A stretch of DNA of 64,000 nucleotides from a candidate division WOR-3 bacterium (GCA_015492295.1 WGFI01000094.1:8560-72559), one strand, 5' to 3'. Numbered from the stretch's first letter, positions 5,941 to 33,320 are shown. Program-made: numbers and translations. Notes: generated by a model not told the origin, from the sequence alone.

Positions 5941-5951
5941 AATCCTTTATT

Positions 5952-7876: not shown

Positions 7877-9529
7877 ATGTTGGGTAAGGAGGCTTTTCTG
7901 ATAAATCTTTATGTTTTAAACTTTTGGTCGGGCACCGAACCATCGTTGCCGTTGTTCAATATGATGTTCAACGATCCTAACAAGGTTTATAACCTCGCCA
8001 ACTCCATCGCTATGAAGTACAGAAAGGATACTTTAAGAGTCTTTCCTTCATGCGTTTTACTCGCGAAGCTATCCGGAAGCAATATAAGGGCGGGGCTCCT
8101 AAGTGATATATACAAAGAAACCGTAGCCGAGATAACGGGGGATAACCCCTTAGGCAAATTCATATTTGACAGGGAGAGAAAACTATCAAAAGGTTTGCGA
8201 GATTCCTTGCAAATGATACCGAACTATGTACCTACAAAGATAAACCGATTGACCACCGCCCTGCTCAAAGTGTATTTATCCGTAAATATGAAGGTTCCTC
8301 GCCGTCTGAACGCCTATATATGGGATAGCCTTTCACTCAAAGACAAGGAGGAATTTGAAAGGAGTTTCCTTGGGAAAACCGATAAAGAAAGGATTGCCTA
8401 TGCATTTCAGGTTATGTGCGTTCTTTTGGACTCTTTGAGAAGCGTGGTGAATAGATATGGAAGTTCTATGAAGAGCTTCTATCTGAGAACGCCTTATGGA
8501 TATATATCCTTCGGTTCAAAGGACAAGGATAGCTTCCCAAACTCAATAATAGTGATAGATCCAGGAGGGGATGATATTTACGGTGATGTGCGCTTAGGTT
8601 TGGACCTGTCGGGAAACGATATTTACAAGGGAGATGTTGGTTTTGGCTTCTTCGGTATAGGTGGATTCGTAGATGAGGAGGGTAACGATGTCTATAAGGG
8701 TAGCTATATAGGAGCAGGATTCTTGGGATTTGGATTGTTATATGATTTACGAGGAAACGATATATACAAGTGCAAGGTGTTCTGTTTGGGGGCGGGATAC
8801 ATGGGTGGAGGTATGGTTGTCGATAAGGAGGGAAACGACACATATTATGCAATATCAAAGTCTCAGGGTTTTGGATGGGTTGGAGGTGTAGGTATATTGG
8901 TTGATGTTGAAGGGAACGATAATTACGAACTTGAAGATTCGGTTTTGTACTTCCCATCACCACAGAGTCCGAAACATAACACGAGCTTAGGACAAGGTAT
9001 GGGATACGGTGAAAGGAGGGATTTTTATAACGGTAGATCTCTCGGCGGAGGTTTAGGTATCCTCGTTGATGTGAAAGGGGATGATAGATACTATTCAAGC
9101 GTTTTTTCGCAGGGATCCGGGTATTGGTTGGGTGTGGGAGTTCTATATGATGGGGATGGGAACGATGCGTATTCGGGTGTGTGGTATTCCCAAGGGGCGG
9201 CCGCGCATTTTGGAATAGGCGCCTTGTACGACCTTAGGGGGAACGATGTCTATTTATCCCTTCTATCAACCTCGCAAGGTGTGGGACATGATTTTTCTTA
9301 TGGTATTCTCATTGATTTTAATGGTAAGGACACATATACATGTGGGAACCTTTGCCTCGGAAGTGGAAACGCTCAAGGTGTGGGAATATTTTGGGATTTC
9401 GGTGGAGAAATGCGCACAAACCTTAAAGGTAAAGGTCTAGGTGTTGAAAACCCCGCGGTGGATAAAACGAGTTTCAGGTACTCTTTCCCCACGAAAGGTT
9501 TTGTTTGTAAAGGGAAGGCCTGCCCATAA
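7877..9529 (+). CDS. Hypothetical repeat protein (predicted beta-solenoid with about 14 GND-x-Y glycine-rich turns)
   Basis: 550 aa. Residues about 1-230 are non-repetitive. From about residue 230 a roughly 22-aa periodic unit recurs: GxGxxGxGxLxDxxGNDxYxG. Motifs seen are GDDIYGD, GNDIYKG, GNDVYKG, GNDIYKC, GNDTYYA, GNDNYEL, GDDRYYS, GNDAYSG, GNDVYLS and GKDTYTC. No family is recognised from memory. Confidence 0.55.
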   Translation: MLGKEAFLINLYVLNFWSGTEPSLPLFNMMFNDPNKVYNLANSIAMKYRKDTLRVFPSCVLLAKLSGSNIRAGLLSDIYKETVAEITGDNPLGKFIFDRERKLSKGLRDSLQMIPNYVPTKINRLTTALLKVYLSVNMKVPRRLNAYIWDSLSLKDKEEFERSFLGKTDKERIAYAFQVMCVLLDSLRSVVNRYGSSMKSFYLRTPYGYISFGSKDKDSFPNSIIVIDPGGDDIYGDVRLGLDLSGNDIYKGDVGFGFFGIGGFVDEEGNDVYKGSYIGAGFLGFGLLYDLRGNDIYKCKVFCLGAGYMGGGMVVDKEGNDTYYAISKSQGFGWVGGVGILVDVEGNDNYELEDSVLYFPSPQSPKHNTSLGQGMGYGERRDFYNGRSLGGGLGILVDVKGDDRYYSSVFSQGSGYWLGVGVLYDGDGNDAYSGVWYSQGAAAHFGIGALYDLRGNDVYLSLLSTSQGVGHDFSYGILIDFNGKDTYTCGNLCLGSGNAQGVGIFWDFGGEMRTNLKGKGLGVENPAVDKTSFRYSFPTKGFVCKGKACP

Positions 9530-13410: not shown

Positions 13411-13594
13411 TCAACTCCTTTAAGAGCGCGCTTATATCATTTACATGGTATTTCTTAGCGTTTTCCTCTATGGTTCCCCATATAGGCGATCCGCAGGCTA
13501 CCGCGGGTATTCCATGCTTAAAGAAAATATCCACACTTTCGGGATACCTGAGTATCACCTCCTCTATGCTCATATCTTTCGTTATTCTTTTCAT
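13334..13594 (-). CDS. DUF1858-like small redox protein (hybrid-cluster-protein-associated disulfide domain)
   Basis: 86 aa. The sequence [35 protein letters not shown]...[19 protein letters not shown] matches the typical DUF1858 N-terminus. It is preceded by CTTTAAAATTT 8 nt upstream of the ATG. Confidence 0.55.
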
Positions 13595-13625
13595 ATAACC
13601 TGAAATTTTAAAGTCGTTCGTTGTC

Positions 13626-14264
13626 TCAGAGTTTATATACCCCTATGGAAACGCTCTTGTGGTTTATTCTAAATAGATTATCGCGTACATGCGTTGGTAA
13701 TAAATCACCAACCCAATTAGGGTATCTATAAACTTTTATTGGAATTAACTCTCTTAAGAGTGGAAACACTTTTGCGATTTTTAAAATGGTTAGCATATCT
13801 TTGTAAGTATAGAATATTATTTTACGCCTGCAGGACCTAAGTATATTTGCCAATACTTTTTCGTGATCATCAATATGTACATGTGTAGGATCAAAGAGGA
13901 TAAAGTCATAATATCGCTCTTTTAACTTAACTTCCGATATATTTGCTACTATAAAGTTATCGCTATACTCTGGAAATATTAACTTTTTGGCCTGTGTGAT
14001 AGACTCTTCAATAAAATCTACACCGTATGGAATAAGTTTGTATTTGCTGTTTTCTATGATATGTTTTAGAAGCAGACCGTTTCCACATCCCAAATCTATA
14101 ATCTTTCCATCACCATCAATCAGATTCAGAAAAATATCGTATATTTCCTGAGGATATTCCTTAAAGCCATTAGGTAGAAAAATATTCTTTCCGCTATTGT
14201 TTTCCCAATACATTTTCTTAAGTTCTTTTTTCCGTTTCAAATACCACTCCGCCGCTCTGCTCAT
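13626..14264 (-). CDS. Class I SAM-dependent methyltransferase
   Basis: 212 aa. Motif I is IIDLGCGNGLLLKHI, with an acidic motif II downstream. It is translationally coupled to the upstream ORF (4-nt overlap). Confidence 0.55.
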   Translation of the reverse strand: MSRAAEWYLKRKKELKKMYWENNSGKNIFLPNGFKEYPQEIYDIFLNLIDGDGKIIDLGCGNGLLLKHIIENSKYKLIPYGVDFIEESITQAKKLIFPEYSDNFIVANISEVKLKERYYDFILFDPTHVHIDDHEKVLANILRSCRRKIIFYTYKDMLTILKIAKVFPLLRELIPIKVYRYPNWVGDLLPTHVRDNLFRINHKSVSIGVYKL

Positions 14265-19605: not shown

Positions 19606-20763
19606 TTATCGTAGGAAATATCGGTCAATAACATACTCCGCAAAGGCCAAGGAGGATGTAAAGGCAGGAGAAACGGCATTCAGAATATGAATGATGTTAC
19701 CCCTTTTGATCAGTATAAAATCGTTTTCCATCCTACCTTCATAAAAGTTTATCACTTGTGATCTGACTCCGAACTTCTTTGAAGGTATAATCTTTAAACC
19801 CTTAATATCCATTATCCTTTCCAATTCTCTGAATATACCTAAAAACTTGGTTATAGTTTCCCGATAAGCGTACCTTATGATTTCCGGATTTTTGAGAGCT
19901 AGATGTAAGAATGAAGGGAGGATTTCCAGAATCTCGGAAGATAAGTTTCCGTATCTTCCCAAGGACAGCGTCGCGTTCGGTCCTACGAAAATCTTACCAG
20001 CTGGACTTCTACTCGCATGTACCCCTAAGAAAGGTAGGTTGAGATTCGGTGCAGGATATATGTTCCCTTTTATATAAGCGATTTTATCCCCCACGAGTTC
20101 CCAATATGAACCTTTAAAGGGCAATATATGGTATTCTTCGGCATCCCCAAATTTATGTGCGACCTTATCCGCAAATATTCCAGCACAATTTATAAACATA
20201 TCAAATCCGATTTTACCTTCGGATGTTAAAATCTCATTTTTGCTCAAGGGCTTTATAAATTTAACTCCCAAAAGAACCTTACCTTTACCCTCAATTTCAA
20301 TATCTTCCTTTAAACTTTCAAGCACTTTAATAGGATCCGTATTCGCAGTGGATTCAACATATAAAGCGTATCCAAAAGTCTTAGCTAGGGGTTCTATTCT
20401 TTTCAGCTCTCTCTCATCCACCATTTCCACCTTTACACCATTCAATCTAGCTCTTTCTTTTAGTATTTCAAGCGTTTTCAAATCCCTTTCATCCCTCGCA
20501 ACTATCACCTTCCCATTCTCAATTAAGGGTAGTCCCTTTTCTTTTATGTAGTTCTTCATATATTTATTTCCTTTGACACACAGCTCGGCTTTCAAACTCT
20601 TGGAACGATAATATATACCCGAATGTATGACTCCGCTGTTGTTTCCGGAGGCATGCACCCCCAACCTGTTCTCCTTTTCAAGAACCAGAACCTTGAATCC
20701 CCTTCTCACCAATTCCCTCGCTATACTCAACCCTACTATACCTGCACCGCATACTACCACCAT
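19606..20763 (-). CDS. FAD-dependent oxidoreductase (L-2-hydroxyglutarate oxidase / glycerol-3-phosphate dehydrogenase-like)
   Basis: 385 aa. The N-terminal Rossmann fold is VVVCGAGIVGLSIARELVRRGFKVLVLEK, and GVHASGNNSGVIHSGIYY is typical of the LhgO/DAO family. Confidence 0.65.
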   Translation of the reverse strand: MVVVCGAGIVGLSIARELVRRGFKVLVLEKENRLGVHASGNNSGVIHSGIYYRSKSLKAELCVKGNKYMKNYIKEKGLPLIENGKVIVARDERDLKTLEILKERARLNGVKVEMVDERELKRIEPLAKTFGYALYVESTANTDPIKVLESLKEDIEIEGKGKVLLGVKFIKPLSKNEILTSEGKIGFDMFINCAGIFADKVAHKFGDAEEYHILPFKGSYWELVGDKIAYIKGNIYPAPNLNLPFLGVHASRSPAGKIFVGPNATLSLGRYGNLSSEILEILPSFLHLALKNPEIIRYAYRETITKFLGIFRELERIMDIKGLKIIPSKKFGVRSQVINFYEGRMENDFILIKRGNIIHILNAVSPAFTSSLAFAEYVIDRYFLR

Positions 20764-21566
20764 TTCACTATTTCCAGGCTCATGTCAATGGGCTTGGCGC
20801 CCTTAGTTATAAACCCGACGGAAACCCTATCGGGCTTTAATTTCACTATCTCGCTTAGATTGTCCAAATTCACACCCCCCGATATTTCCACCTTAACCTT
20901 ACCCTTAGCGATACTCATGGCCTTTCGCAAGGTCTCTACATCCATATTATCAAGTAATACCCAATCAACATTGAGGGTCAAGGCCTCCTCCAACTCTTCC
21001 AGATTCTCAACTTCAACCTCTATGATCGCATGCTCTCCCAAGGTTTTCCTGACCATATTCACCGCATCGGATACGCTCCCAGCCAATCTCTTATGATTAT
21101 CCTTTATCATAACGATCTCCGATAAAGACATCCTATGATTGTATCCACCACCCACCCTTACGGCGTACTTTTCTAAGAATCTCATCAAAGGGGTCGTCTT
21201 ACGAGTATCATATATGGGAACTCCACTGGAATTCTTCACGAATTCGCGGGTTATGGTTGCTATTCCACACAGTCTTGAAAGTATATTTAACAGCGTTCTC
21301 TCACACATAAGTACATCGTATCCTGCACCTTTCACATTAGCTATAGTATCACCCTCCTTGAACTCCTCACCGTCGCCCAATGATTCTATCTTGAAATTGA
21401 ACAACTCCGAGAATTCATCAAGAATCAACCTTCCAGCGAATATTCCCGATTCCTTCGCGACGATCACCCCTTCAACGTACCTATCTTTGGCTATACATAG
21501 CGATGTTATATCTCCGAAAGGAGCATCCTCGTTTATGGCTTCAATTATGAACTCCCTAAGTGTCAT
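20754..21566 (-). CDS. nadC: Nicotinate-nucleotide pyrophosphorylase (carboxylating), quinolinate phosphoribosyltransferase
   Basis: 270 aa. It shows the QPRTase N-terminal and TIM-barrel pattern (MCERTLLNILSRLCGIATIT...LLDNM...GGV). Confidence 0.8.
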   Translation of the reverse strand: MTLREFIIEAINEDAPFGDITSLCIAKDRYVEGVIVAKESGIFAGRLILDEFSELFNFKIESLGDGEEFKEGDTIANVKGAGYDVLMCERTLLNILSRLCGIATITREFVKNSSGVPIYDTRKTTPLMRFLEKYAVRVGGGYNHRMSLSEIVMIKDNHKRLAGSVSDAVNMVRKTLGEHAIIEVEVENLEELEEALTLNVDWVLLDNMDVETLRKAMSIAKGKVKVEISGGVNLDNLSEIVKLKPDRVSVGFITKGAKPIDMSLEIVKWW

Positions 21567-22296
21567 ATTTCAGAACTCTCTCCGCATATCTCAAATCCTC
21601 CGGCGTATCTATGCTTATACCATCGTAATCTACGATGCCAACCTTTATCTTCCATCCATGGTACAATGCTCTTAACTGTTCGAGTTCCTCCTTGATCTCC
21701 AACTCCGGGCGCTGCAACTTCGTAAATTCCAAAAGTTTCTCCACCGTATATCCGTATATGCCTATATGAATAAGAACATGATGGGATCCATAAGGGATTG
21801 AATATCGTGAGAAGTAAAGGGAATAGCCGTTTTTGTTTAAAACCACCTTAACCCTATTAGGATCGTTATCCTTTTTGGAAACCTTAGCGAGCGTATAAAT
21901 ATCAGCATCATCTTTCTTCATCATTTCAAATATTTTTTCCACGAGGAACGATTTTATAAACGGCTCATCACCCTGTAAATTCACCACTTTAACCTCCCTA
22001 TCAAAATCCCTCAAAGCGTAGGCCAACCTGTCGGTTCCCGATGGGAGATCGGAAGGCGTTAAAATTACCTCACAGAGATCGCGTACAGCATCCTTTATTC
22101 TCTCATCATCCGTTGCCACAATGACCTTTGCATCTTTAACCTTCAATGCACTTTCAACAACCCACCGTATGACGGGCTTTCCTCCGAGATTCGCCAACAG
22201 CTTCCCCGGAAATCTTCTTGAACCGTACCTCGCCGGTATCCCTACTATTCTCAAAGTATTCCACCCGTGGGTAATATAACCACTTCCTTCATCCAA
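21556..22296 (-). CDS. kdsB: 3-deoxy-manno-octulosonate cytidylyltransferase (CMP-Kdo synthetase)
   Basis: 246 aa. The sequence IVGIPARYGSRRFPGKLLANLGGKPVIRWV...VVNLQGDEP matches the KdsB nucleotide-binding and QGDEP motifs. Confidence 0.85.
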   Translation of the reverse strand: MDEGSGYITHGWNTLRIVGIPARYGSRRFPGKLLANLGGKPVIRWVVESALKVKDAKVIVATDDERIKDAVRDLCEVILTPSDLPSGTDRLAYALRDFDREVKVVNLQGDEPFIKSFLVEKIFEMMKKDDADIYTLAKVSKKDNDPNRVKVVLNKNGYSLYFSRYSIPYGSHHVLIHIGIYGYTVEKLLEFTKLQRPELEIKEELEQLRALYHGWKIKVGIVDYDGISIDTPEDLRYAERVLKYDT

Positions 22297-22904
22297 CCCT
22301 TATTTCTAAGTATCCCGATAACGACATCCGCCACATCCTCAGGTTTAAGCATACTATCCCGTGAATATGTATAACCCACATCACTCCAAATGTTGGTATC
22401 AACGGCCCCAGGAAGTATTACGCTAACCTTTATTCTGCCTTTCAACTCCTCCGCGAGCGATAACGCGAAACCCAAGAGACCGAATTTTGAAGCACAGTAA
22501 GCGGACCATCCGGGAAAGGCTTCCTTTGAGGCGACGGAACCTATGAATACGATGTTCCCCCCCTTCTTAATATGGCTTAATGCGGCCTTTACGGTATAGA
22601 ACGCTCCGTTGAGGTTGGTGCGTATAACATCCTCCCAATCGCCTATATCCATATTTTCAACATATCCAACGCGGGCTATACCAGCATTTACAACGAGAAC
22701 ATCAATATCCCCACTCTCATCTACGACCTTTTCTACTGCTGATTTAATCTCTTCAAACTTTCTGACATCCGCTTTTATGTAATTGAACTCCGGAAAATCT
22801 TCCCTTCGGCCGGTTATATAAACACTGTAACCCTCATCCCTGAGCTTTCTCGCTATCGCCAATCCTATACCCGATGTTCCACCGGTTATAAAGCCTACTG
22901 GCAT
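22251..22904 (-). CDS. SDR-family oxidoreductase
   Basis: 217 aa. The motifs are TGGTSGIGLAIARKL (TGxxxGIG), NAG, and YxxxK (YCASKFG). Confidence 0.75.
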   Translation of the reverse strand: MPVGFITGGTSGIGLAIARKLRDEGYSVYITGRREDFPEFNYIKADVRKFEEIKSAVEKVVDESGDIDVLVVNAGIARVGYVENMDIGDWEDVIRTNLNGAFYTVKAALSHIKKGGNIVFIGSVASKEAFPGWSAYCASKFGLLGFALSLAEELKGRIKVSVILPGAVDTNIWSDVGYTYSRDSMLKPEDVADVVIGILRNKGWMKEVVILPTGGIL

Positions 22905-24295
22905 TACTTCGTAGCTCGTTTCAGGTATTCTATAACCGCCTTGGTTTCCTCATCAGTTATACCACCCGGAATGATCATCGGAACTTTATATTCTTCAAAC
23001 AGCTTTTTAGCCTCGGGATCGTTCTTTATCATTGAATCAGGTTTGGTGATCATCAGGAACACCCACTTTTCAGTCCTTCGGCTGAATAATCCTTTTAAAG
23101 CGGGACCCACAAGCTTTTTATCTATCAAATGACAAGCCTTACATTTTTGATTGAATATACTCTCTCCCCTCTTAACGAGCTCCTCGGAGACCTCCGGGGT
23201 GCCTTTTTCCTCCTGAGCGCCTTCCATTTGGGTGGTATCCGAAGGTTTTGATTCTTTAACCTCAATCGTATCCTGCGCTCCTTTTTCGGCTTCAACCTTT
23301 TTTACCCTTTTGATCCTCGGAATATACTCCGCTGGTAGTTTAACTTTTTTCCAAGACATAACGAGCATGGTTAGAGCTCTATTTTCATCGTCCGTAAATC
23401 CAAAGTTGGGCATCGTGGATGTTGGTGTTATGGATCTCGGCTCCTCAAAATGTAAGAGATGCCATGAGAAGATCGTGAGAGGCAGACCTCTCCTTTCTAT
23501 TTCCTCCTTTATACTCCTTCCGCTTTTGACAGGTTTTCCATCCTTGATCTCATAGTATGGGCCTCTCATGTCAAACATTTCGGGCATCTTTGAACCCTCA
23601 TAGGTTAGATCGGGACCGATCTTTCCTCCTTCACCGTTTATTATATGACAGGTCTTACATGCCTTTTCTTCAACCAACTTCTTAGCTAAATTTATGTAAG
23701 GCATGCCGGGAACGCTATCCTCGTACCTATGACATATATTGCAGTTTATCTCCATAAGAGGAAGCTTTTGCCAATCCTTAAAACCGTACTCCTTGGCCTT
23801 CTCAGCCGACAACAGAGGCTCAAGCCATCTTACCTTTTTCTTACCCTCATGTATTACGTGTGCTTCCCTTAAATTCGTTGCGTACCCTTGCCCACCATGA
23901 CATGTCGTGCAACCGAACTTTTTAAAGGGATGTTTGGCTATCAAACCTTTCAGATCAGGATGCGTTCTGAAAACCTTAGGCACATCTTCACCATCCAAAC
24001 CCTTCCATTCGTATCCCATATGACATGTTATACACCTCTCAACCTTTCCAAGTTCGGGTATCCAGATCTGCTTAACACCGAAGGTGATCTTGCTCGCCAC
24101 CTCCTTGCCGAACTTCTTTTCAATCAACGATTTGAACTCTCGCTGGTATTTTATATACTCCGGATTCAACTCCTTGTATATCGCTATACCGAGTAAAAAC
24201 GCGCCTATTATAGCCAAACCGTATATTATCCAAGAATCATAAGGAAACGGGTCATCCTTAACATCGGGTAAAGGTTGCTTCTTGGGTGTTGCCAT
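22904..24295 (-). CDS. Membrane-anchored pentaheme cytochrome c (c subunit of the Rieske/cytb complex)
   Basis: 463 aa with one N-terminal TM helix. It has five CxxCH motifs (CITCH, CTTCH, CNICH, CKTCH, CKACH). The last lies in a class-I monoheme-like C-terminal domain. It is the last gene of the Rieske-cytb operon. Confidence 0.75.
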   Translation of the reverse strand: MATPKKQPLPDVKDDPFPYDSWIIYGLAIIGAFLLGIAIYKELNPEYIKYQREFKSLIEKKFGKEVASKITFGVKQIWIPELGKVERCITCHMGYEWKGLDGEDVPKVFRTHPDLKGLIAKHPFKKFGCTTCHGGQGYATNLREAHVIHEGKKKVRWLEPLLSAEKAKEYGFKDWQKLPLMEINCNICHRYEDSVPGMPYINLAKKLVEEKACKTCHIINGEGGKIGPDLTYEGSKMPEMFDMRGPYYEIKDGKPVKSGRSIKEEIERRGLPLTIFSWHLLHFEEPRSITPTSTMPNFGFTDDENRALTMLVMSWKKVKLPAEYIPRIKRVKKVEAEKGAQDTIEVKESKPSDTTQMEGAQEEKGTPEVSEELVKRGESIFNQKCKACHLIDKKLVGPALKGLFSRRTEKWVFLMITKPDSMIKNDPEAKKLFEEYKVPMIIPGGITDEETKAVIEYLKRATK

Positions 24296-24308
24296 CTTAT
24301 ACCTCCTT

Positions 24309-25544
24309 TTAAATTATCTCCGGAAGTTCAGGCCACGCCCAAGGCCAATAAACTCCCCAATAAGGACCACGGAAATACATCGCGAAGATAATCATACCCA
24401 CTATCAACAAAGCGAAGAAGGTGAAAACTAAGTTCTGTACAAGCCTACTTCTATGGAACCATACGCCTGTTGCCTCGGGAGGACTCTTATCAATGAACGC
24501 CCATATGGTTGCGGCACCTCCCAGTATAGCGGGTATAAGGACACCACCTATGAATCCACCGTTAAGGGTGAAACCACCTATCCTTATGGTGGTTATGGCG
24601 ACGAGTTCCTGAAGCCATAGGAAATACCAGGGTGCCTTGGCGGGGTTGGGCGTCCATTCTAAACTCGCGGGCTCTTCAAGTGGAGATTCGAGAAAAACGG
24701 TTAAAAACAACACCCAAACGAATGTTCCCAAAGACACCAAGATTATTCTCCTTACGGCCCAAGGTGTTGAGAATACCATCTCAGGCTGCACAGGTTTCCC
24801 GCTCTTCCTCGCTATCTTTTCCTGCTCAACCGAAGCCAAACCTTCATCCTTCCTGATCCTCCACATGTGATAAGAAAACAGAACGAGGAGAAGCGCGGGT
24901 AGGAATATAACATGTAAGGTGTAAAATCTTATAAGAGCGTTCTGATCCAATCTGGTTCCACCAGCTAGGACATAATAAATATCATCGCCGAGTATCGGAA
25001 CGGATCTGGCTATCTGGGTTCCAACCGTAACTGCCCATATAGCTAGCTGATCCCAGGGTAGGAGATACCCGCTGAAAGAGAGGAGAAGTGTGACCCCTAA
25101 GAGTATCATCCCAACGACCCAGTTGATCTGCCTTTTCGCCATATGACTGATACCGTTCTTATACGCCCCGGTATAGAATACCCTTACCATGTGCAGGAAC
25201 ACGGATGCCACCATCATGTGAGCAGCCCATCTGTGCATATTTCTCAGAAACCAACCGAAGGATACGGCATATTCCAAATCCTTTATGGATTGATAAGCCC
25301 TTTCGACCGAGGGAACGTAAAGGAACATAAGGATTATACCCGTTATGGTTAGTATAAAAAATAGTACAGCGGAGATGGTACCCAACCAGAGGCTGTAACC
25401 CCAGGATAGACTGCGCTTGGTCATTCTGGGTGGGAACCAGTGCAACCAGAAGTTTCTGGTTATAGCCTTACCCGCCTCACCTCTATCAGCAGGATCAAAA
25501 GTCCATATCAAAGCCCTCCAAACCTGATAGAGTTTCTCCTTCAT
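24309..25544 (-). CDS. Cytochrome b (fused b6/subunit-IV-like)
   Basis: 411 aa. Motifs include WGYSLWLGTISAVLF...FLYVP, the His pair in WAAHMMVASVFLHMVRVFYTGAYK and the PEW motif (LPWDQLAIW). Eight or more TM helices are predicted. Confidence 0.85.
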   Translation of the reverse strand: MKEKLYQVWRALIWTFDPADRGEAGKAITRNFWLHWFPPRMTKRSLSWGYSLWLGTISAVLFFILTITGIILMFLYVPSVERAYQSIKDLEYAVSFGWFLRNMHRWAAHMMVASVFLHMVRVFYTGAYKNGISHMAKRQINWVVGMILLGVTLLLSFSGYLLPWDQLAIWAVTVGTQIARSVPILGDDIYYVLAGGTRLDQNALIRFYTLHVIFLPALLLVLFSYHMWRIRKDEGLASVEQEKIARKSGKPVQPEMVFSTPWAVRRIILVSLGTFVWVLFLTVFLESPLEEPASLEWTPNPAKAPWYFLWLQELVAITTIRIGGFTLNGGFIGGVLIPAILGGAATIWAFIDKSPPEATGVWFHRSRLVQNLVFTFFALLIVGMIIFAMYFRGPYWGVYWPWAWPELPEII

Positions 25545-26053
25545 ACCTTTAACCTCCAGTCCTTCTTAACTTCCCTTGACATATCAACCACCAAAAAACC
25601 CGTAGCTGGGTCTATCTCTAAGGGATAATGAGGAAGACCTCTTGGGGCCGGACCGGCGTATATATCTCCATCCTGCGTATATTTTGACCCATGACAGGGG
25701 CAGTGGAATTCCCATTCTTCCTCTATTATCTTACCGAGTATCTTCTTTTTAACCTTCTGACCGAAAGGAACGAAATTCACCGTACATCCGAGATGCTGGC
25801 ATATCGCGGATATCGCCCAAACCTCGTTTCCCTTTTTGAATACAAACAGCCTATGCTCCGGAAAGTAGTTCATACCCTCTGCCAGATTCTTAGGATCTAT
25901 GAGTCTAACCCTCTTTGGAGGCTCGTAAAGTATGTTCGGCCATAGGGATCTGGCGAAACCCGCGAATACACCTCCTAAGGTTCCATACCCCACAAGCCTA
26001 CCTATATTCTTCAAAAATTCCCTACGCTTGCTCTTGATCTCCTTATCGGTCAT
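25541..26053 (-). CDS. Rieske [2Fe-2S] iron-sulfur protein
   Basis: 170 aa. It has a Tat-like N-terminus (RREFLKNIGRL) and the two Rieske boxes CQHLGC and CPCHGS. A TATAAT element lies 10 nt upstream of the ATG. Confidence 0.85.
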   Translation of the reverse strand: MTDKEIKSKRREFLKNIGRLVGYGTLGGVFAGFARSLWPNILYEPPKRVRLIDPKNLAEGMNYFPEHRLFVFKKGNEVWAISAICQHLGCTVNFVPFGQKVKKKILGKIIEEEWEFHCPCHGSKYTQDGDIYAGPAPRGLPHYPLEIDPATGFLVVDMSREVKKDWRLKV

Positions 26054-26161: not shown

Positions 26162-28942
26162 ATGGGAAAATCCTATAAGGAAACTTTGAATATGCCCAAA
26201 ACGGACTTTCCCATGAGAGGGAACCTGCCCAAAAGGGAGCCTATATTTCAAAAAAAATGGGAAGATAAGAGGATATTTGATAGGTTAAAGACCAGGGAAG
26301 GAGATCTTTTCATTCTTCACGATGGACCCCCCTACTCAAACGGACATATACACATAGGACACGCCCTTAACAAAACCCTGAAAGATATAGTTGTAAGATA
26401 TAAGGCTCTTAGAGGTTATAGGATCAGTTTCGTTTTGGGTTGGGATAATCATGGCATGCCCATAGAAAAGGAAGTCGTTGAGAAGGACGAAGAAATCAAA
26501 TCACTACTGAAAACGAAAAGTATAAAGGATCCAGAGGTGAAGTTGAAGATTCGGGAGAAGTGTAGGGAGTTTGCTAAAAGGTGGGTTGATGTGCAAAAGG
26601 AGGAGTTTAAAAGGCTCGGTGTTCTTACCGATTGGAACGATATATACCTTACGATGGATCCCGAAATAGAGGCGTATGAGACCGAACTCTTGGCGGAATT
26701 GGTTGAAAGGGGATACATTTATAGGGATTATATGCCTCTTCCCTGGTCAAGGGAAAGCCAGAGCGCGTTGGCTATGGCAGAAATAGAGTATTACGATAAA
26801 GTCTCCCCATCTTTGTGGTTTTTAACCAGATGTTTGGATGAGAATTTTTATATATTGGTATGGACTACTACACCTTGGACGCTTTTTGGAAACAGGGCGT
26901 TCGCCTTTTCACCGGATATGGATTATGTATTCTTGAAGGTTGAGGATAAAGTTATAGTTTTCGGTAAGGAGAACTTTAATAGGGTCAAGGAGGAAACGAG
27001 TATAAACGGCGAAATGATACGGGTTGAAAATGGAAGATACTTTGAGGGAAAAAGGTTTCAACACCCTCTGTTCAAGGACTTGATTTCTCCGGGTATCCTT
27101 GCGCCTTTCGTGTCCTCCGAGGAAGGTTCAGGCATAGTGCATATCGCCCCCGGTCATGGTAAGGAGGATTATGAGATAGGAAAGGTTTATTCTCTTGAAG
27201 TTTTTTCGCCCGTTGATGAGTTGGGAAACTTCACAGAGGAGGCTGATAGACAAACTTCTTATCCGTTGAATGTTGCGGGTAAAAGCATAGAGGAAGGAGG
27301 AGAAAGGGCAATAGAGAGATTGAAGGAGCAGGGGTTTTTCGTCAAACTGGGAGAATATACCCACAGCTATCCGCACGATTGGAGATACAAGAAGCCTCTG
27401 ATTTTTAGAGCGACTGGACAGTGGTTCTTATCGGTTGATCACGACTCTTTAAGGGAAAGGGCTTTAAAATCCATCAAAGAGGATGTCAAATGGCATCCTC
27501 CGGAAAGCATAAACAGGATTTACGCCTCCGTGAAAGAGAGACCGGATTGGGTCATATCAAGACAAAGGGCGTGGGGAGTGTTCATACCGGCCATAAAATG
27601 CGTATCGTGTAATAACGAGTACCTTGAACCATCGGTTATGAAAACTTTGGCGAGATACATAAAAGACGGTGATGTGGATGCATGGATAAGATTGGATATA
27701 AGGAAATTCCTTCCTGAGGATTATAAATGCAGGAAATGTGGAGGAGTGGAGTTTGAGAAATCCTATGATATACTTGATGTTTGGTTTGATTCTGGATCAA
27801 CGAACATAACCGTTTTGGAGAAAAGGAGCATCGGTTGGCCTGCCGATGTTTATCTTGAAGGATGGGATCAACATAGGGGGTGGTTTAACGCTTCTTTGAT
27901 GATAGGGATGGCGCATAAGGGGAAACCTCCGTATAAGGTCGTGATAACCCATGGCTTCGTTCTGGATCATCTCGGAAGGGCCATGCACAAATCCTTGGGA
28001 AATGTGGTATCACCTCAGGAGATAATAAACAAGTATGGGGCGGATGTTTTGAGACTCTGGGCGGTGTCCTCCGATTACACTCAGGATCTTCGTATAGGTG
28101 ATGAGATAATGGCAAGAGTTGTGGATGCATATCGGAAGATAAGGAACACTTACAGGTATCTGCTTTCAAACCTTTACGATTTTGACAAACCCCTTGAATA
28201 TGAATCCCTATTGCCTATGGATAAGTGGGCCTTGGATAGGCTTTATGACTTGGTTAAGGAGTGTCAGAGATTTTACGATAACTACGAGTTTGATAAGGTG
28301 TTTCGTAAGTCCTATGATTTTGTGGTGGATATGTCATCTTTTTACTTTGAATCCTTAAAGGACAGGTTATACACATATTCAGCGGACAGTCTTGAAAGGA
28401 GATCGGCACAAACGGTTCTTTATCATATACTTTATCATCTAAGCATGATATTCGCACCCATAATACCTCATACCGCTGAGGAAGTTTGGGAACATTCGCC
28501 TTTCAAGGATAAAAGCGAGAGCATATTCCTTGAAGTTTGGGAGGATGTACCGGATAGGTTTAGGAATGAGGAAATAAGAGGGGATTTTTCCTTGTTGAGA
28601 TCCATGCGGGATGAGGTTTATCCTTCATTGGAAGTCCTGCGAAGGGAGAAGAAGGTAATAGGTCAGAATCTTGATGCCCGTATAGAGTTCAAACCTAAGG
28701 ATGAATATGTGGATATTCTGAGGAGATACGAGAACTATCTCACAGAAATTTTTGGGGTATCCCAGTTTGTTATAACATCGTCTCCTGAGGGGGATGAGAA
28801 GTTTTCAGGGGAATTCGGCGTCTGGGCCGTTTCTCACGCGAAAGGAAAGAAGTGTCCGAGATGCTGGATTTGGTTTGAAACATTTGAGGGGGAAGTCTGC
28901 GATAAATGTAAAAGGGCCCTAAGCGCCATACCTCAAAGTTGA
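26162..28942 (+). CDS. ileS: Isoleucine--tRNA ligase
   Basis: 926 aa. It has the HIGH motif (PYSNGHIHIGHALN), the KMSKS motif (KSLGNV...) and a C-terminal zinc cluster (CPRCW...CDKC). Confidence 0.95.
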   Translation: MGKSYKETLNMPKTDFPMRGNLPKREPIFQKKWEDKRIFDRLKTREGDLFILHDGPPYSNGHIHIGHALNKTLKDIVVRYKALRGYRISFVLGWDNHGMPIEKEVVEKDEEIKSLLKTKSIKDPEVKLKIREKCREFAKRWVDVQKEEFKRLGVLTDWNDIYLTMDPEIEAYETELLAELVERGYIYRDYMPLPWSRESQSALAMAEIEYYDKVSPSLWFLTRCLDENFYILVWTTTPWTLFGNRAFAFSPDMDYVFLKVEDKVIVFGKENFNRVKEETSINGEMIRVENGRYFEGKRFQHPLFKDLISPGILAPFVSSEEGSGIVHIAPGHGKEDYEIGKVYSLEVFSPVDELGNFTEEADRQTSYPLNVAGKSIEEGGERAIERLKEQGFFVKLGEYTHSYPHDWRYKKPLIFRATGQWFLSVDHDSLRERALKSIKEDVKWHPPESINRIYASVKERPDWVISRQRAWGVFIPAIKCVSCNNEYLEPSVMKTLARYIKDGDVDAWIRLDIRKFLPEDYKCRKCGGVEFEKSYDILDVWFDSGSTNITVLEKRSIGWPADVYLEGWDQHRGWFNASLMIGMAHKGKPPYKVVITHGFVLDHLGRAMHKSLGNVVSPQEIINKYGADVLRLWAVSSDYTQDLRIGDEIMARVVDAYRKIRNTYRYLLSNLYDFDKPLEYESLLPMDKWALDRLYDLVKECQRFYDNYEFDKVFRKSYDFVVDMSSFYFESLKDRLYTYSADSLERRSAQTVLYHILYHLSMIFAPIIPHTAEEVWEHSPFKDKSESIFLEVWEDVPDRFRNEEIRGDFSLLRSMRDEVYPSLEVLRREKKVIGQNLDARIEFKPKDEYVDILRRYENYLTEIFGVSQFVITSSPEGDEKFSGEFGVWAVSHAKGKKCPRCWIWFETFEGEVCDKCKRALSAIPQS

Positions 28943-29616
28943 AATACATCATCAAAGGTGTAGTATCCCTTCTCTTTATCTTTTATGAACTCTAATGCCA
29001 TAGCTACCCCCTTTGCCAACGCTTTTCTTGATGATAACCTATGGGTGAGTTCAAGCCTTTCCCCATCAGAAAATATAAAAACCGTATGCTCTCCAAAAAC
29101 ATCACCCCCCCTAAGGCCAAATACCCCTATATCCTTTTCTTTCCTCATTCCAGTTCTGTTAGTTATTATACTTCCGTCAAACAACGATGCTATACTTAAA
29201 GCCGTGCCACTCGGTGAATCCTTTTTCCATCTGTGGTGTATTTCACATATCTCAACATCCCAATCCGTTATATAAGAGAGTATAGACTTTATGGCCTTCT
29301 TTAAGAGCGCTATCCCTACGGAGAAATTTGCAGAATGAACTATCGGTATATGATCACCGAAACTTTTTATAATTCTCATTTGCTCTTCATTATGACCCGT
29401 GGTACCCAAGATGTATTTCTTTCCATACTTTTTAGCATATTCAAGCGCGGGTATCGTTGCCTCGGGTAATGCAAACTCTATTACAACATCGCAGAGTTTG
29501 ATCGGTTCAAAGCTGTCGCCCTTTCTGATTTTACCCACGATCTCAACGCCCATCTCCGACAGAACCGAATTTACCTCCCTACCCATCCTACCATAACCCA
29601 GGAGTGCAACTTTCAT
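28933..29616 (-). CDS. dapB: 4-hydroxy-tetrahydrodipicolinate reductase
   Basis: 227 aa. It has the N-terminal NAD(P) fold MKVALLGYGRMGREV and the DapB C-terminal substrate domain (HHRWKKDSPSGTA). Confidence 0.85.
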   Translation of the reverse strand: MKVALLGYGRMGREVNSVLSEMGVEIVGKIRKGDSFEPIKLCDVVIEFALPEATIPALEYAKKYGKKYILGTTGHNEEQMRIIKSFGDHIPIVHSANFSVGIALLKKAIKSILSYITDWDVEICEIHHRWKKDSPSGTALSIASLFDGSIITNRTGMRKEKDIGVFGLRGGDVFGEHTVFIFSDGERLELTHRLSSRKALAKGVAMALEFIKDKEKGYYTFDDVFQL

Positions 29617-29726
29617 AGCGGGAATTATATTGGAGAAAATCTTGGAAGTTTTCCTCTTTATAATATTCGGTTGCGGTTTATAAAAGGTATGTGCGAACAG
29701 TTCCTATATTTTCCAAATTCGGTGGT

Positions 29727-29747
29727 ATATCCGAATATTTCGGATAT
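29727..29747. promoter_or_regulatory. Perfect palindrome ATATCCGAA-TAT-TTCGGATAT upstream of the putative REase gene
   Basis: It has 9-bp inverted arms and a 3-nt spacer, about 40 nt upstream of the R-gene ATG. A second partial palindrome (AAATTCGG...CCGAATATTT) overlaps it. It is a candidate operator, as with controller-protein C-boxes, or a dapB terminator. Confidence 0.35.
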
Positions 29748-29786
29748 GAAGGGGTTAGGTGAGATTGGGCTTGAGGAGGAGCGAAT

Positions 29787-30419
29787 ATGTCAAGTAGATT
29801 GGTAGAAATATTTGAGGATGAAAAACTCGTAGAGAAAATCAAAGATAAACTACCTTATTTGTTTCAACTTGCAGAATTGGAAAGTTCAAGAGCAGGCAAA
29901 ATTGGAATGAAAGTTGGTTCTCTTCGTGAAAAAATAGTCATTGCCTTACTTATTTACAAATTCGGAGAAGAGAATGTGGAGACGGAAATTCCAATCACAG
30001 AACCAGAGATTGATGTAAAATTATTCGGTAAACCAATATCCATTAAAACAATAACTGGTAAAAGTTTTAGCGGAGTTAAACTCATATGGACTGTTGATGC
30101 TCAGAAAGCAAGAGAATTCAGGGAGCACTACTATCCACATTGTGATATTTTACTTGTCCAAATTAATTGGGGAGATATTGGAGGGTTTTATTATATTCCA
30201 GTAGAAGCGCAACAGAAACTCTTTGATAAGATAGGTAGAAGTGGATATATTAAACTGCCAAAGCCAGGCACAAATCCAAGAGGTGTGGAAATAACTAAGG
30301 AAGCATTAAAGAGTTTGGTTAACGACAATTTAACGAGAAAAATTGAGATAAAATGGCAGAAAAGAAAAATTGAGTTTAATCCTTACAAAAGATGGGTAGA
30401 TTACTGGAGGGAGAATTGA
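29787..30419 (+). CDS. Putative type II restriction endonuclease (family not recognisable)
   Basis: 210 aa with no detectable family signature. It lies directly upstream of a DNA methyltransferase and overlaps it by 28 nt. It has a strong SD (GAGGAGG) that host genes lack, and AT-rich A/K/E-rich codon usage unlike its neighbours. A possible PD-(D/E)xK-like segment is TEPEIDVKL. The assignment rests on context. Confidence 0.45.
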   Translation: MSSRLVEIFEDEKLVEKIKDKLPYLFQLAELESSRAGKIGMKVGSLREKIVIALLIYKFGEENVETEIPITEPEIDVKLFGKPISIKTITGKSFSGVKLIWTVDAQKAREFREHYYPHCDILLVQINWGDIGGFYYIPVEAQQKLFDKIGRSGYIKLPKPGTNPRGVEITKEALKSLVNDNLTRKIEIKWQKRKIEFNPYKRWVDYWREN

Positions 30420-31354
30420 GAATGAAAAGAAGAAGGAGAAGGAAAGGGACTAGAACGAGTTCGTTTGGGGCACCGGGTAGAATAAATCACGACTCTACTC
30501 CGTTTTATACGAGTAAGTTATATGAGGGCTTGCCAAAGGAACAAGAGATGAACTATGTGGAAAATCCGATACCTAAGGGATTTTTAAACAAAATTTTCTG
30601 TAAATCCTCGGAAAATATGGAAGAATTACCCGATAGCAGCGTTCATTTGGTGGTAACCTCTCCACCTTATAATGTAGGGAAAGAGTACGATAAGGATCTT
30701 ACCCTTCAAGAGTATCTTGAATTTTTAAAGAGGGTTTGGAGGGAGGTTTATAGGGTTCTGGTTCCGGGTGGTAGGGTATGTATCAACATAGCCAATCTTG
30801 GAAGAAGGCCGTACATTCCTCTTCATGCTTTTATCATAAAGGATATGCTTGACATAGGATTTCTTATGAGAGGGGAGATTATCTGGAATAAATCATCCTC
30901 CGCAGGTTCATCAACGGCGTGGGGTAGCTGGTGCTCAGCATCAAATCCGACATTAAGGGACATTCATGAGTATATTCTGGTATTTTCAAAAGGGACATTC
31001 AAAAGGGAAAACATTGGGAGGAGAAGCACCATTTCAAAGGAGGAGTTTCTGGAATTCACGAAAAGCGTCTGGACATTTCCAGCCGTTTCCGCAAAGGAGG
31101 TGGGACATCCTGCCCCATTCCCCCTTGAACTTCCTTATAGATGCATTCAACTTTATACCTATGAAGGCGAAGTCGTTTTGGATCCTTTTATGGGGAGTGG
31201 GCAAACCGCCATCGCCGCAATAAAAACCCGAAGATTTTATGTTGGGTATGATATAGAGGAGGAATATGTTAAATTGGCGGAAAGAAGGATAAAAGCATTT
31301 TTGATAGAATATAAATCACCCAAATTGTTTGAATTTACGGGAGAAAGTAAATGA
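30392..31354 (+). CDS. DNA methyltransferase, beta-class amino-MTase (N4-cytosine or N6-adenine; the SPPY motif favours m4C)
   Basis: 320 aa. Motif IV is VVTSPPYNVG, and motif I (FxGxG, DPFMGSGQTAIAA) lies at the C-terminus, giving the beta-class order. The true start may be the internal ATG at about 30422 or 30554 (MNYVEN...). The listed N-terminus is an Arg/Lys-rich tail. Confidence 0.8.
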   Translation: MGRLLEGELRMKRRRRRKGTRTSSFGAPGRINHDSTPFYTSKLYEGLPKEQEMNYVENPIPKGFLNKIFCKSSENMEELPDSSVHLVVTSPPYNVGKEYDKDLTLQEYLEFLKRVWREVYRVLVPGGRVCINIANLGRRPYIPLHAFIIKDMLDIGFLMRGEIIWNKSSSAGSSTAWGSWCSASNPTLRDIHEYILVFSKGTFKRENIGRRSTISKEEFLEFTKSVWTFPAVSAKEVGHPAPFPLELPYRCIQLYTYEGEVVLDPFMGSGQTAIAAIKTRRFYVGYDIEEEYVKLAERRIKAFLIEYKSPKLFEFTGESK

Positions 31355-31490
31355 TTTGCAAAACGGCGTATAACAAGCGGGTATCTGGCTTCGGGTTTTG
31401 TAGACCCTTCGCCCAAATTTGCTCCGCTCCGCAAATTTCAAATACCCGCAAGTCGTTGTCTGCTATTGCAGGATATGGAGGTTAATTTAA

Positions 31491-31748
31491 ATGGAAGAAA
31501 GCACCTTAATTAATGTAATGATAGATCCATCGCTAGTTGTGGTGGAAAGCACAATGGATAAAACTTTTGATCTGATAAAAGAATATCATAAAACTCAAAA
31601 TTTCAAATTTTATCTTCCTAAAACTTTTCAATCACTCGCTGTTGAAGATAAGTTGCATCAGGAAAGTTTGACTTTCAAATTTTTTCAGCAAAGCGCATAT
31701 CCCACAGAGATTACAATTGTAAAGACACTAATATCTGATCTGATATAA
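31491..31748 (+). CDS. Hypothetical small protein in AT-rich island (possibly the 5' half of a frameshifted gene)
   Basis: 85 aa ORF in an AT-rich, low-coding region after the MTase. An adjacent frame stays open from about 31746 to 32038, so one indel could fuse the two ORFs into a protein of about 180 aa. Confidence 0.25.
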   Translation: MEESTLINVMIDPSLVVVESTMDKTFDLIKEYHKTQNFKFYLPKTFQSLAVEDKLHQESLTFKFFQQSAYPTEITIVKTLISDLI

Positions 31749-31822
31749 TTGCAACTTTTAAATTTACTTCTAAACATATTCTAATACATAAAGAGAAATA
31801 TGGGGAATTTTTTGAATCGCTT

Positions 31823-32038
31823 TTGGAAGAATCCCGTTTTTGGAGAGAATATTTGGATGAACGTACTTTGAATATTCTCTTTGAGGAATGGGTATTTTTA
31901 CAAGAACATTCTATGATAGTATCTCGGATCAGAACATTTAATAAATTTATAGATGCCGGGGCAGTTTGTCTTCAATTTGGTAGGAAGACTTTTGAAATAT
32001 TGGTAAGAAAAACATTAAAAAAAGAGATGACGAGTTGA
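31823..32038 (+). CDS. Hypothetical small protein (possibly the 3' half of a frameshifted gene)
   Basis: 71 aa ORF. The frame is open upstream to about 31746 without a canonical start. Confidence 0.2.
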   Translation: MEESRFWREYLDERTLNILFEEWVFLQEHSMIVSRIRTFNKFIDAGAVCLQFGRKTFEILVRKTLKKEMTS

Positions 32039-32555
32039 TTACTAATGTGGATAAGCTAAGAGCTTTTGGGAAATGGATTGCGGTAGGAGGACCTGCTACT
32101 TTGTCATTTTTTAACCCAACGATTTCGGCTTTTGGGAGCTTAATAGGTGGATATTTTTTGCTATTTGATCCCGCTGCAACGACAGATAGCAGGCATCTTC
32201 GGTGAAGTTTCGCATACCCGCCCACCGTTATACCTAAGATTTTTTACCTCCTGCCACTATTTATATGAACTCACATAGTTCTTTATACCCACCCATACGT
32301 ATGATATTCTTCTTCTCATCCCATTCATGGAATACCCTATTATCGGTATTACATTGACAGGATAATAACCTTTTTTCACTTATCCCGTATGATACCTCAT
32401 TCACGCAATACCCACCATTGATTAGCAATTTTCACAGCTTCTCAGAATACCTATAAGAGATTGAAACGATAAATTTGCATATAAATTTTAAAACAGTTCA
32501 GGAAAGTTTATAGCCTGCATATGAAATAAGATTTTTCAAGTGTATAATACCTACT

Positions 32556-33320
32556 ATGGGAACCGTTAAATTGGATATAAAAGGTGAAGTCGCCAATATA
32601 ATACTGAATCGTCCTGAGGTTGGTAATGCTTTCAATAGGGATATGCTTATGGAATTGAAAGATATATGTGAAGACATTTCCAAATCTGAGAATCTCAGGG
32701 TTGTTATAATTTCAGGGGAGGGAAAACATTTTTGCGCCGGTGGGGATCTCAACTGGATGAGAGATATGGGGAAATCCGAATATTCTATAAACTATGATGA
32801 TGCGCAGCTTCTATACGATACATACCTATCCCTTGAAAATCTCCCTGTCCCTTTGATATCCAAGGTGAAAGGTGCGGTTAGAGGAGGTGGTATGGGTATA
32901 GTTAGCGTAAGCGACATAGTCATATCTTCAAATAAAGCCACCTTTTCGTTCTCAGAGGTAAAACTGGGACTTGTTCCTTCAATAGTCTCATCGTTTGCAT
33001 TACTTAGGCTATCCTATTCCATGGCCAAGAGGTTATTCCTAACCGGTGAGGTGTTTGACGCGGAGTTCGCGAGGAGCATAAACTTTGTGGATGAAGTCGT
33101 TGATGAGGGGGATCTGGATAAAAAAGTTCAAGAGTTCGTTGAGATTATACTCTCCAACAAACCCGAGGCTGTGAGGAAAACAAAAAATCTTATGAAGATA
33201 TATAGGGGTTTTCAGGGAAGCGTTTATAAAGATATAACCTCGCATATTTTGGCAACCACACGGATGAGCAAGGAAGCCTTAGATGGTATAGAGGAATTTC
33301 TACAAAGGAAAAGAAAGTGA
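32556..33320 (+). CDS. Enoyl-CoA hydratase/isomerase (crotonase family)
   Basis: 254 aa. The sequence is VANIILNRPEVGNAFNRDM...FCAGGDLNWM...GGGMGIV, giving the oxyanion-hole motifs. Confidence 0.85.
   Translation: MGTVKLDIKGEVANIILNRPEVGNAFNRDMLMELKDICEDISKSENLRVVIISGEGKHFCAGGDLNWMRDMGKSEYSINYDDAQLLYDTYLSLENLPVPLISKVKGAVRGGGMGIVSVSDIVISSNKATFSFSEVKLGLVPSIVSSFALLRLSYSMAKRLFLTGEVFDAEFARSINFVDEVVDEGDLDKKVQEFVEIILSNKPEAVRKTKNLMKIYRGFQGSVYKDITSHILATTRMSKEALDGIEEFLQRKRK

Follow-up and report, generated by a model that had tools for sequence, protein, structure and literature searches.

A ThaI-type restriction-modification pair in a probable remnant of two integron-type cassettes of a candidate division WOR-3 bacterium

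The stretch of DNA considered here, referred to as the window, consists of 64,000 nucleotides (nt) of a candidate division WOR-3 bacterium (GCA_015492295.1 WGFI01000094.1:8560-72559), and all positions are counted from its first letter. Between dapB (28933-29616, minus strand) and an enoyl-CoA hydratase gene (32556-33320), the window carries a strain-specific island of 2.9 kb that encodes a restriction-modification (R-M) pair, an endonuclease gene (R) followed by a methyltransferase gene (M). The two enzymes belong to a thoroughly known family, that of ThaI, and what is new is the structured sites resembling the attC sites of integrons, with breakpoints at G|TT, that lie around them. As a whole explanation, a ThaI-type R-M system associated with an integron-type remnant of two cassettes is considered quite probable. 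Comparison at the nucleotide level with fetched loci shows that the island is made of two modules, which meet at about 31372-31380. Its features are the following:

29659-29676, plus strand: left junction, with a TATAAT -10 box (29659-29664) facing the island and a GTT at 29670-29672
29687-29760, plus strand: putative upstream recombination-type site, attI- or attC-like, with an inverted repeat, a 6-nt spacer and the core GTTAGGT
29773-29779, plus strand: Shine-Dalgarno sequence GAGGAGG of the R gene, read from the sequence
29787-30419, plus strand: R gene, ThaI-family endonuclease of 210 amino acids (aa) (Pfam PF15514, PDB 3NDH)
30392-31354, plus strand: M gene, beta-class SPPY methyltransferase of 320 aa (Pfam PF01555)
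31357-31464, plus strand: attC-like site ending the R-M cassette (covariance model R1, 85 bits)
31491-32205, plus strand: PIN-like pseudogene in three frames (homologues, tblastn)
32173-32236, plus strand: decayed attC-like site of the PIN-like cassette, both ends of which align with intact sites
32228-32535, no strand: AT-rich stretch of about 300 nt before the hydratase promoter, starting after the last GTT core

The R protein matches the Pfam family PF15514 (ThaI) with an E value of 2.6e-100 (334.7 bits for a cut-off of 25), its residues 8-209 covering positions 1-203 of the 203 of the model, and it aligns without gaps with the crystallised ThaI (PDB 3NDH; E 3.9e-91, 63% identity). In ThaI, the active site is composed of E54/D82/(S91)/K93, Met47 intercalates at CG steps, and both the wedging residue Trp107 and the base-reading Arg171 are essential (PMC3025569). 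The seven ThaI residues M47/E54/D82/S91/K93/W107/R171 are all conserved in register, as M41/E48/D76/S85/K87/W101/R165 in R. In addition, a database search retrieved 4085 homologues of R, the top 120 of which are 78-100% identical to it, and several of these homologues, from archaeal and bacterial metagenome-assembled genomes (MAGs), bear the NCBI name 'ThaI family type II restriction endonuclease'. Family members hold 60-86% identity across phyla, in both bacteria and archaea. As judged from its sequence, R is thus a full-length ThaI-family PD-(D/E)XK Type IIP restriction endonuclease. The initial annotation, whose reader found no family for this protein because no search tools were at hand, had described it as an unclassifiable endonuclease possibly belonging to an uncharacterised family. 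The end-to-end PF15514 match, the identity to 3NDH, and the thousands of homologues, several of them already named after ThaI, contradict this description and leave an uncharacterised family practically without probability. The fold check proposed at that time for the 210-aa protein accordingly yields a nuclease fold, that of 3NDH, and not a non-nuclease one.

The M protein matches the Pfam family PF01555 (N6/N4 DNA methylase) with an E value of 3.6e-51 (174.7 bits, cut-off 26.7). Its SPPY sequence (motif IV, about residues 90-93) stands N-terminal of DPFMGSGQT (motif I, about residues 264-272), an order that defines the beta class, and its best solved relatives are 2ZIE (E 5.8e-37) and the cytosine-N4 methyltransferase 8S9N (E 1.3e-23). 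In the ThaI system, the partner of the endonuclease is described as an N4-methyltransferase (PMC3025569). Based on the serine of SPPY, on the solved N4-cytosine relatives and on the N4 designation of the ThaI partner, M is predicted to produce, probably, N4-methylcytosine in CGCG, and the N4-cytosine type first suggested from SPPY agrees with these indications. The two open reading frames (ORFs) of 210 and 320 aa, reported earlier as overlapping by 28 nt, are indeed present with this overlap. Nevertheless, an alternative start is equally good for M, namely an in-frame ATG at 30422 located after GGAGGGAG (30406-30413), which would give a protein of 310 aa and, in place of the overlap, a gap of 2 nt between R and M.

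The pairing of the two genes was surveyed in 80 genome loci with a gene for an R relative, which are spread over many phyla of bacteria and archaea. In 62 of the 80, R adjoins a methyltransferase belonging to the family of M (57-85% identical), which usually lies directly downstream and often overlaps it. In seven others (L055, L059, L060, L062, L064, L069, L080), which lack the beta-class partner, a C5-cytosine methyltransferase (PF00145) ends a few bases before R. No complete R without a neighbouring methyltransferase was found in the 80 loci, the remainder being cut by a contig end or carrying a truncated R. The pair is therefore an intact Type II R-M pair, as had been proposed, all related loci with a complete R having an adjacent methyltransferase, and its identity as such is hardly open to doubt. 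As a separate observation, the ThaI-family nuclease is seen to be associated with two unrelated protective methylases, the C5 type being used in about a tenth of the loci. Besides, another candidate division WOR-3 MAG (L082, 6001-7439) harbours a copy in which M and R are each broken into several frames, R being 88% identical in its first segment; this copy is, as far as its reading frames tell, a decaying instance of the same module.

In functional terms, ThaI is known to cleave CG/CG and to leave blunt ends, and R is predicted to cut CG^CG. The methyltransferase, probably through N4-methylcytosine, would mark the CGCG sites of the host, and the dimeric PD-(D/E)XK endonuclease would cut the unmarked CG^CG sites of incoming DNA, generating blunt ends. 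Both genes form one operon with R in first position and, since their reading frames overlap or abut, their translation is probably coupled. One may alternatively consider that R, while being a ThaI-family member, recognises a site other than CGCG, or that the system is inactive, for instance with a silent R and an M acting as an orphan-like methylase. This alternative, which is held to be improbable, is in line with an identity to ThaI of only 63%, with the decayed state of the neighbouring cassette, from which selection on the island may be weak, and with the absence of specific CGCG avoidance in the window or in the modules. Indeed, CGCG was counted 76 times in the window for 124 expected (ratio 0.61), a value similar to those of CCGG and GCGC, and the island contains none for 2.8-3.3 expected, a difference that is not significant; neither count gives evidence of the predicted specificity. 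The observed/expected ratio amounts to 0.71 in 57 R-M modules and to 0.71 in their flanks as well. The avoidance of CGCG was uninformative as a test of specificity and was discarded. Against the alternative stand the full length of both the R and M ORFs, the conservation of all catalytic, intercalating and base-reading residues tested, and the 60-86% identity kept across phyla and domains, which suggests a strong constraint on one function.

Regarding expression, the R gene possesses the strong GAGGAGG Shine-Dalgarno sequence noticed in the initial annotation, 7 nt ahead of its ATG, and AGGAG is conserved at this position in related loci. No ORF lies between R and the palindrome that precedes it (described below), and no third gene was found here or in the related loci inspected, so that no controller (C) protein is evident. 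A possible role of the palindrome as a C-box operator was rejected in the absence of a C gene. A scan for promoters and terminators gave fewer matches than shuffled sequence, the promoter-like hexamers located inside R (30223-30251) being no more frequent than in shuffled sequence.

The evidence for a cassette comes first from the 108-nt element found directly after the stop codon of M (31357-31464). The attC sites of integrons follow the layout R''-L''-variable-L'-R', with the cores RYYYAAC and GTTRRRY. In the element, the parts read R'' GTATAAC, L'' GCGGGTAT, two inner hairpins, L' ATACCCGC and R' GTTGTCT (31454-31460), and a crossover is proposed between G31454 and T31455. Copies of its 5' part are found behind M in L004 and L011 (Ca. 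Alkanophaga), and the entire element reappears before a PIN-like gene in L088. These elements share one plan: after an end in TAAC and a short spacer, the first strand of a 9-10 bp stem leads into a variable central part, in which a second hairpin surrounds a conserved CCCAAAT; the stem then returns and is followed by a further spacer and by a beginning GTTA. The terminal TAAC and GTTA resemble RYYYAAC and GTTRRRY. The bottom strand of 31357-31464 folds at -18.1 kcal/mol (z -2.98), a stability reached by 0 of 200 shuffles.

A covariance model, R1, was built from eight copies of the element and searched against 0.9 Mb of fetched loci. It detects 19 sites at E < 1e-3, all of them on the coding strand and each just after an ORF, and the site that follows M in the window scores 85 bits (E 3e-21). 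The sites are organised in arrays, L086 and L088 having three each, L090 two, L011 four and L004 two or three. Among the 19 family members, 88-89% of the stem positions are paired, compared with 20-48% in slid controls, and compensatory changes occur in 14 of 17 pairs, none of 500 shuffles reaching the observed covariation. The genes lying between the sites of other loci are of a kind typical of cassettes. They comprise BrxC/D-like ATPases, a DEAD/Cas3-like helicase and a 639-aa protein without Pfam match in L011 (1-7660), a unit of three genes that includes a radical-SAM protein and a nucleotidyltransferase-HEPN (MNT-HEPN) pair in L004 (2083-6995), and GmrSD with a GyrI-like protein in L086 (1035-3989).

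The second module corresponds to the AT-rich region downstream of the pair, whose low GC content was already pointed out (0.31-0.39 over 31400-32600). Its ORF fragments lie in three frames, at 31491-31748, about 31739-32038 and 32035-32205 (tblastn frames +3, +2 and +1). They are separated first by a complex indel (about 31733-31744) and then by a break in an A7 run (32017-32023) where intact homologues need A8. Once joined, the fragments give a sequence of 237 aa that retrieves 77 intact proteins of 205-277 aa, the best being 85% identical over 99% of the length, and none of the 77 contains a Pfam domain. The suspicion of a decayed tail was thus right as to the pseudogene remnant, while its details have to be amended: two frameshifts, rather than a single indel, separate the fragments from a protein of about 237 aa, rather than about 180 aa. 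The family keeps an EE pair and two Asp residues, one N-terminal and one C-terminal. The tail is read as the decayed gene of an unannotated PIN-like protein family. Its intact relatives occur in varied contexts; one of them neighbours a GmrSD gene, and the contigs of others bear genes of archaeal type. No PIN-like gene was found beside other ThaI modules, and the two cassettes are therefore regarded as independent.

The comparison of the four contexts in which the PIN-like gene was found (the window, L086, L088 and L090) defines the borders of this module. In L086 and L090, homology on the 5' side of the gene starts exactly at (G)TTATCTG, which corresponds to the GTTGTCT of the window, and on its 3' side a similar element is present in each locus up to a final GTT, beyond which the sequences differ entirely. 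Furthermore, the R'' of the PIN-like cassette, CAGATAAC, and the 5' end of this cassette, GTTATCTG, are exactly complementary, as expected if the cassette circularises at G|TT. In the window, the corresponding site (32173-32236) has kept GCTGCAACGACAGATAGC ... ACCGTTATACC and an R' GTTATAC (32227-32233) and has lost its centre; its two ends align with those of the intact sites located after the PIN-like gene in L086, L088 and L090. The module boundaries are located exactly at G|TT cores, like those of integron cassettes.

On the other side of the R-M pair, a palindrome with perfect arms of 9 bp, whose existence upstream of R is confirmed, reads ATATCCGAA-TAT-TTCGGATAT at 29727-29747 (arms 29727-29735 and 29739-29747). 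It is the sole perfect inverted repeat with 9-bp arms in the window, a count that is not beyond chance since shuffles give 0-6. The palindrome is directly followed by a 6-nt spacer and the core GTTAGGT (29754-29760), on which basis it may be the stem of a recombination-type site located before the cassette, attI-like or degenerate, with a crossover proposed between G29754 and T29755. The bottom strand of this site reads ACCTAAC-6 nt-stem-ATA-stem-6 nt. The upstream site is conserved at an equivalent position in L004, L006 and L016, and a GTTA about 35 nt before the R start is common to nearly all the aligned loci. In L011, an attC-like site detected by the model (5883-5976) ends, with its R', at the equivalent GTTATAC. 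A stem at the position of the palindrome recurs in L004, L006 and L005, with G-U-compatible and compensatory changes. A role as an RNA hairpin in the 5' leader was also considered and rejected, the stem being absent from L016, L082, L011, L008 and L007, and the z score of the fold being only -1 to -2; a place within the recombination-type site that ends in GTTAGGT accounts better for the palindrome.

In the light of these borders, the R-M pair would travel in a gene cassette of the integron type (29755-31454) with an attC-like site at its end, and would be followed by a second cassette (31455-32227) in which both the PIN-like gene and the attC-like site have decayed. Such a two-cassette remnant without a nearby integrase would resemble a CALIN, a cluster in which attC sites occur without an integrase. 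Most archaeal integrons are CALINs devoid of integrase and rich in toxin-antitoxin and R-M cassettes, and R-M and toxin genes are among the commonest annotated functions of integron cassettes (PMC9668308). Recombinase genes are encountered in related loci. L004 holds the module's closest relative; there, the homologous stretch lies 43 nt after the stop of a truncated ORF of an Xer/IntI-type tyrosine recombinase, for which the integron integrase model TIGR02249 is the best or near-best (73 bits, cut-off 265). In L080, a complete, divergently oriented recombinase, whose best match is also TIGR02249 (211.5 bits, same cut-off), is followed by a cassette with the C5-methylase and the ThaI-like R, and then by an attC-like site. 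Independently, an Xer/IntI-like tyrosine recombinase gene was observed directly after the R-M pair, at about 8300-8450, in the Chloroflexota loci L026 and L030.

Several points nevertheless weigh against the cassette interpretation. The window contains neither an integrase nor any other tyrosine recombinase in its 64 kb, and only one of its sites passes R1, which formally makes a single attC and no cluster. The remnant at 32173-32236 obtains only 11.4 bits (E 0.8) with this model, having 29 nt where the model has 65, and the upstream site lacks an R'' box and gives no detection at all. Moreover, R1 was trained on members of the very element family that it retrieves, and the alignment used for counting pairs was fitted to it. 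Strict matches to RYYYAAC/GTTRRRY are limited to some members of the family, and no extrahelical bases are evident. Finally, the L080 protein aligns with TIGR02249 in two stretches, with 272 aa for a model of 315 positions, and may lack part of the integron integrase model; as both this protein and the L004 fragment remain below the curated cut-off, they could be of the Xer type.

These weaknesses leave room for another reading, in which the R-M pair is ThaI-like and the 100-nt elements are not attC sites, being instead Xer substrates (dif modules) or terminator- or REP-like (repetitive extragenic palindromic) sequences, and the island having arrived by another route. Consistent with it are the recombinases of the related loci, which score similarly on the XerC/XerD/XerA and integron integrase models and below every curated cut-off, the missing integrase, the asymmetric unpaired spacers, the lack of evident extrahelical bases and the many R boxes that depart from the consensus. 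However, dif-type sites measure about 28 bp, whereas the elements are 100-nt hairpins in which TAAC and GTTA flank, in this order, two covarying stems. In addition, the elements always lie 3' of ORFs, on the coding strand and in arrays, and neither terminators nor REP elements explain the G|TT boundaries and the complementarity between the 5' end and R''. For these reasons, non-attC elements are considered rather unlikely, and the view of the island as a degenerate two-cassette integron-type remnant is retained as probable.

The insertion site was approached by means of a sister genome from another sample, represented by two contigs that are 87-88% identical to the window at the nucleotide level, L084 (IleRS to dapB) and L085 (hydratase to DUF6754 onward). 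On the left, BLAST homology stops by score at 29643, while in a pairwise alignment the identity with L084 runs through the TATAAT box, the GTT at 29670-29672 and ...TATAATAYTYRGTTRC before the sequences diverge. On the right, homology resumes at about 32530-32543, some 25 nt before the hydratase start codon. After dapB, L084 contains instead (13483-13856) an ORF of 63 aa together with the 41 initial codons of a TdeIII-like gene, then the contig ends; this fragment matches PF09520 (TdeIII) with an E value of 1.3e-5 and 25.3 bits, just below the cut-off of 27.2 bits. The site between dapB and the hydratase gene hence appears to be a variable slot occupied by different restriction genes in close relatives. 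Other comparisons were less useful: DapB relatives at 61-68% identity have a different gene order around dapB and are uninformative on the site, one distant-relative MAG (L005, L100) has its ThaI-type R-M on a contig other than that of dapB, and a metagenome scan with DapB for synteny was abandoned after yielding only relatives with 33-34% identity.

The foreign origin put forward for the island is well sustained by these data, as is its location between dapB and the hydratase gene. The synteny comparison suggested at the outset shows that the sister genome keeps both flanks and has other DNA between them. The R-M module is 70-80% nucleotide-identical to modules of unrelated bacteria and archaea. 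The R gene has its own Shine-Dalgarno sequence and, in accordance with the AT-rich codon usage first noted, a GC content of 0.34 and a GC content at third codon positions (GC3) of 0.27, below the values of about 0.40-0.50 of the other genes of the window (host GC3 about 0.44). An integrase would have inserted the cassettes at a site that contains GTT and lies between dapB and the hydratase gene, where the host-type promoter just upstream of the island, whose style was deduced by comparison with the regions preceding the genes of the window, could drive them. In the same line, cassettes have been reported to insert at genomic attG sites, giving rise to isolated cassettes or small clusters, and to be expressed when they lie near a resident promoter and possess their own ribosome-binding site (bioRxiv 10.1101/2022.09.11.507474). 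With respect to the host genes, those placed first in operons have a CCTTA(G/T)AATAYCC motif ending 6-11 nt before the start codon and no Shine-Dalgarno sequence, as exemplified by the genes at 2341, 14772, 15488 (minus strand), 26162, 33348, 35298 and 44109, whereas internal genes have GGAGG. This suggests, as far as can be read from the motifs, that the host uses widespread leaderless transcripts, and the description of the surrounding genes as leaderless is plausible, many operon-first genes having a TAnAAT box and no Shine-Dalgarno sequence.

Among known systems, the closest is that of ThaI from Thermoplasma acidophilum (Firczuk et al. 2011, PMC3025569), whose endonuclease has the same length and fold family as R, shares 63% identity with it, and presents the same E-D-(S)-K active site, intercalating Met, wedging Trp and base-reading Arg. 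Its partner is of the N4 type, to which the beta-class SPPY enzyme corresponds here. The two systems differ in their hosts, a thermoacidophilic archaeon for ThaI and a bacterium here, and in that the specificity of R and the methylation type of M are predicted; besides, the present pair is followed by an attC-like site. Eco29kI (Nagornykh et al. 2011, PMC3113576) provides a parallel in terms of organisation, with R first and partly overlapping M, a single operon and no C protein, although the enzyme families are unrelated. In that system, the timing of expression depends on an internal M promoter and on antisense promoters (PMC3113576).

As for the cassettes, the island can be compared with CALINs and SALINs, archaeal integrons among them (Ghaly et al. 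2022, PMC9668308; Loot et al., bioRxiv 10.1101/2022.09.11.507474). The likeness concerns the succession of an ORF and an imperfect hairpin of about 100 nt with ..AAC and GTT.. cores, the one-directional arrays, the shuffling of modules at G|TT, the R-M, toxin and defence cargo, the lack of a nearby integrase, the insertion beside a resident promoter and the presence in the cassette of its own ribosome-binding site. In contrast, a single intact site is present in the window, a bona fide IntI was not found, the R boxes are often off consensus, and the sites form a family unusually similar in sequence across bacteria and archaea. The tail family, for its part, differs from the PIN nucleases (VapC toxins, Nmd4, Nob1) in that it matches no Pfam or NCBIfam PIN model, is about 100 residues longer, has a hydrophobic C-terminal segment and shows no evident antitoxin partner, the copy in the window being moreover a pseudogene.

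As an enzyme, R is one more ThaI-like CGCG system among thousands, and at most a candidate thermostable isoschizomer. The interest lies in the context, as the island would offer a base-resolved example of an R-M system that moves as an integron-type cassette and has landed outside an integron, beside a host promoter, near-identical modules being present in archaea and bacteria. This would support recent proposals according to which defence systems are stored in integron cassettes, such cassettes pass between bacteria and archaea, and insertion at genomic sites gives rise to isolated ones. In addition, an unannotated PIN-like family is flagged as cassette-borne. More tentatively, the attC-like sites could constitute a single sequence-related family distributed over archaeal (e.g. 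Ca. Alkanophaga) and multi-phylum bacterial MAGs, and thus a cassette pool common to both domains, of which the present cassette would have landed outside any integron, in a promoter-proximal GTT defence slot; this broader view is possible but doubtful. If true, the pool would carry ThaI-type R-M, GmrSD, MNT-HEPN, BrxC/D-like proteins with a helicase, and the undescribed PIN-like family.

Some further observations concern the window at large and the right end of the island. Three palindromic tetranucleotides are strongly depleted in the window, TCGA (8 for 161 expected), ACGT (10 for 131) and CTAG (21 for 90), and the host lineage may have been exposed for a long time to TCGA- and ACGT-specific restriction, and only recently to a CGCG system. 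A second rearrangement breakpoint is found beside IleRS, upstream of which the genes differ between the window (20754-26053), with Rieske, cytochrome b, cytochrome c and NAD-biosynthesis genes, and the sister genome (L084, 1-9978), with DHH phosphoesterase, peptidase M24, RsgA and others. At the right end, the stretch 32228-32535 has no BLAST match in the fetched loci other than L001-L003, which are copies of the window's own contig. It contains, at 32438-32467 on the minus strand, a lone CRISPR-repeat-like 30-mer, GTTTCAATCTCTTATAGGTATTCTGAGAAG, which scores 27.7 bits with RF01315 (gathering score 37, E 0.026), is unique in the window, has no array nearby, and may be due to chance or be an orphan repeat; the Rfam scan of the window otherwise returned two distant tRNAs only. 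A pair of 16-mers is located at 32322-32337 and 32398-32413, 76 nt apart. Lastly, several ATACCC-containing motifs that resemble the -10/discriminator motif of the host are present at 32205-32450, and these copies may be decayed promoters.

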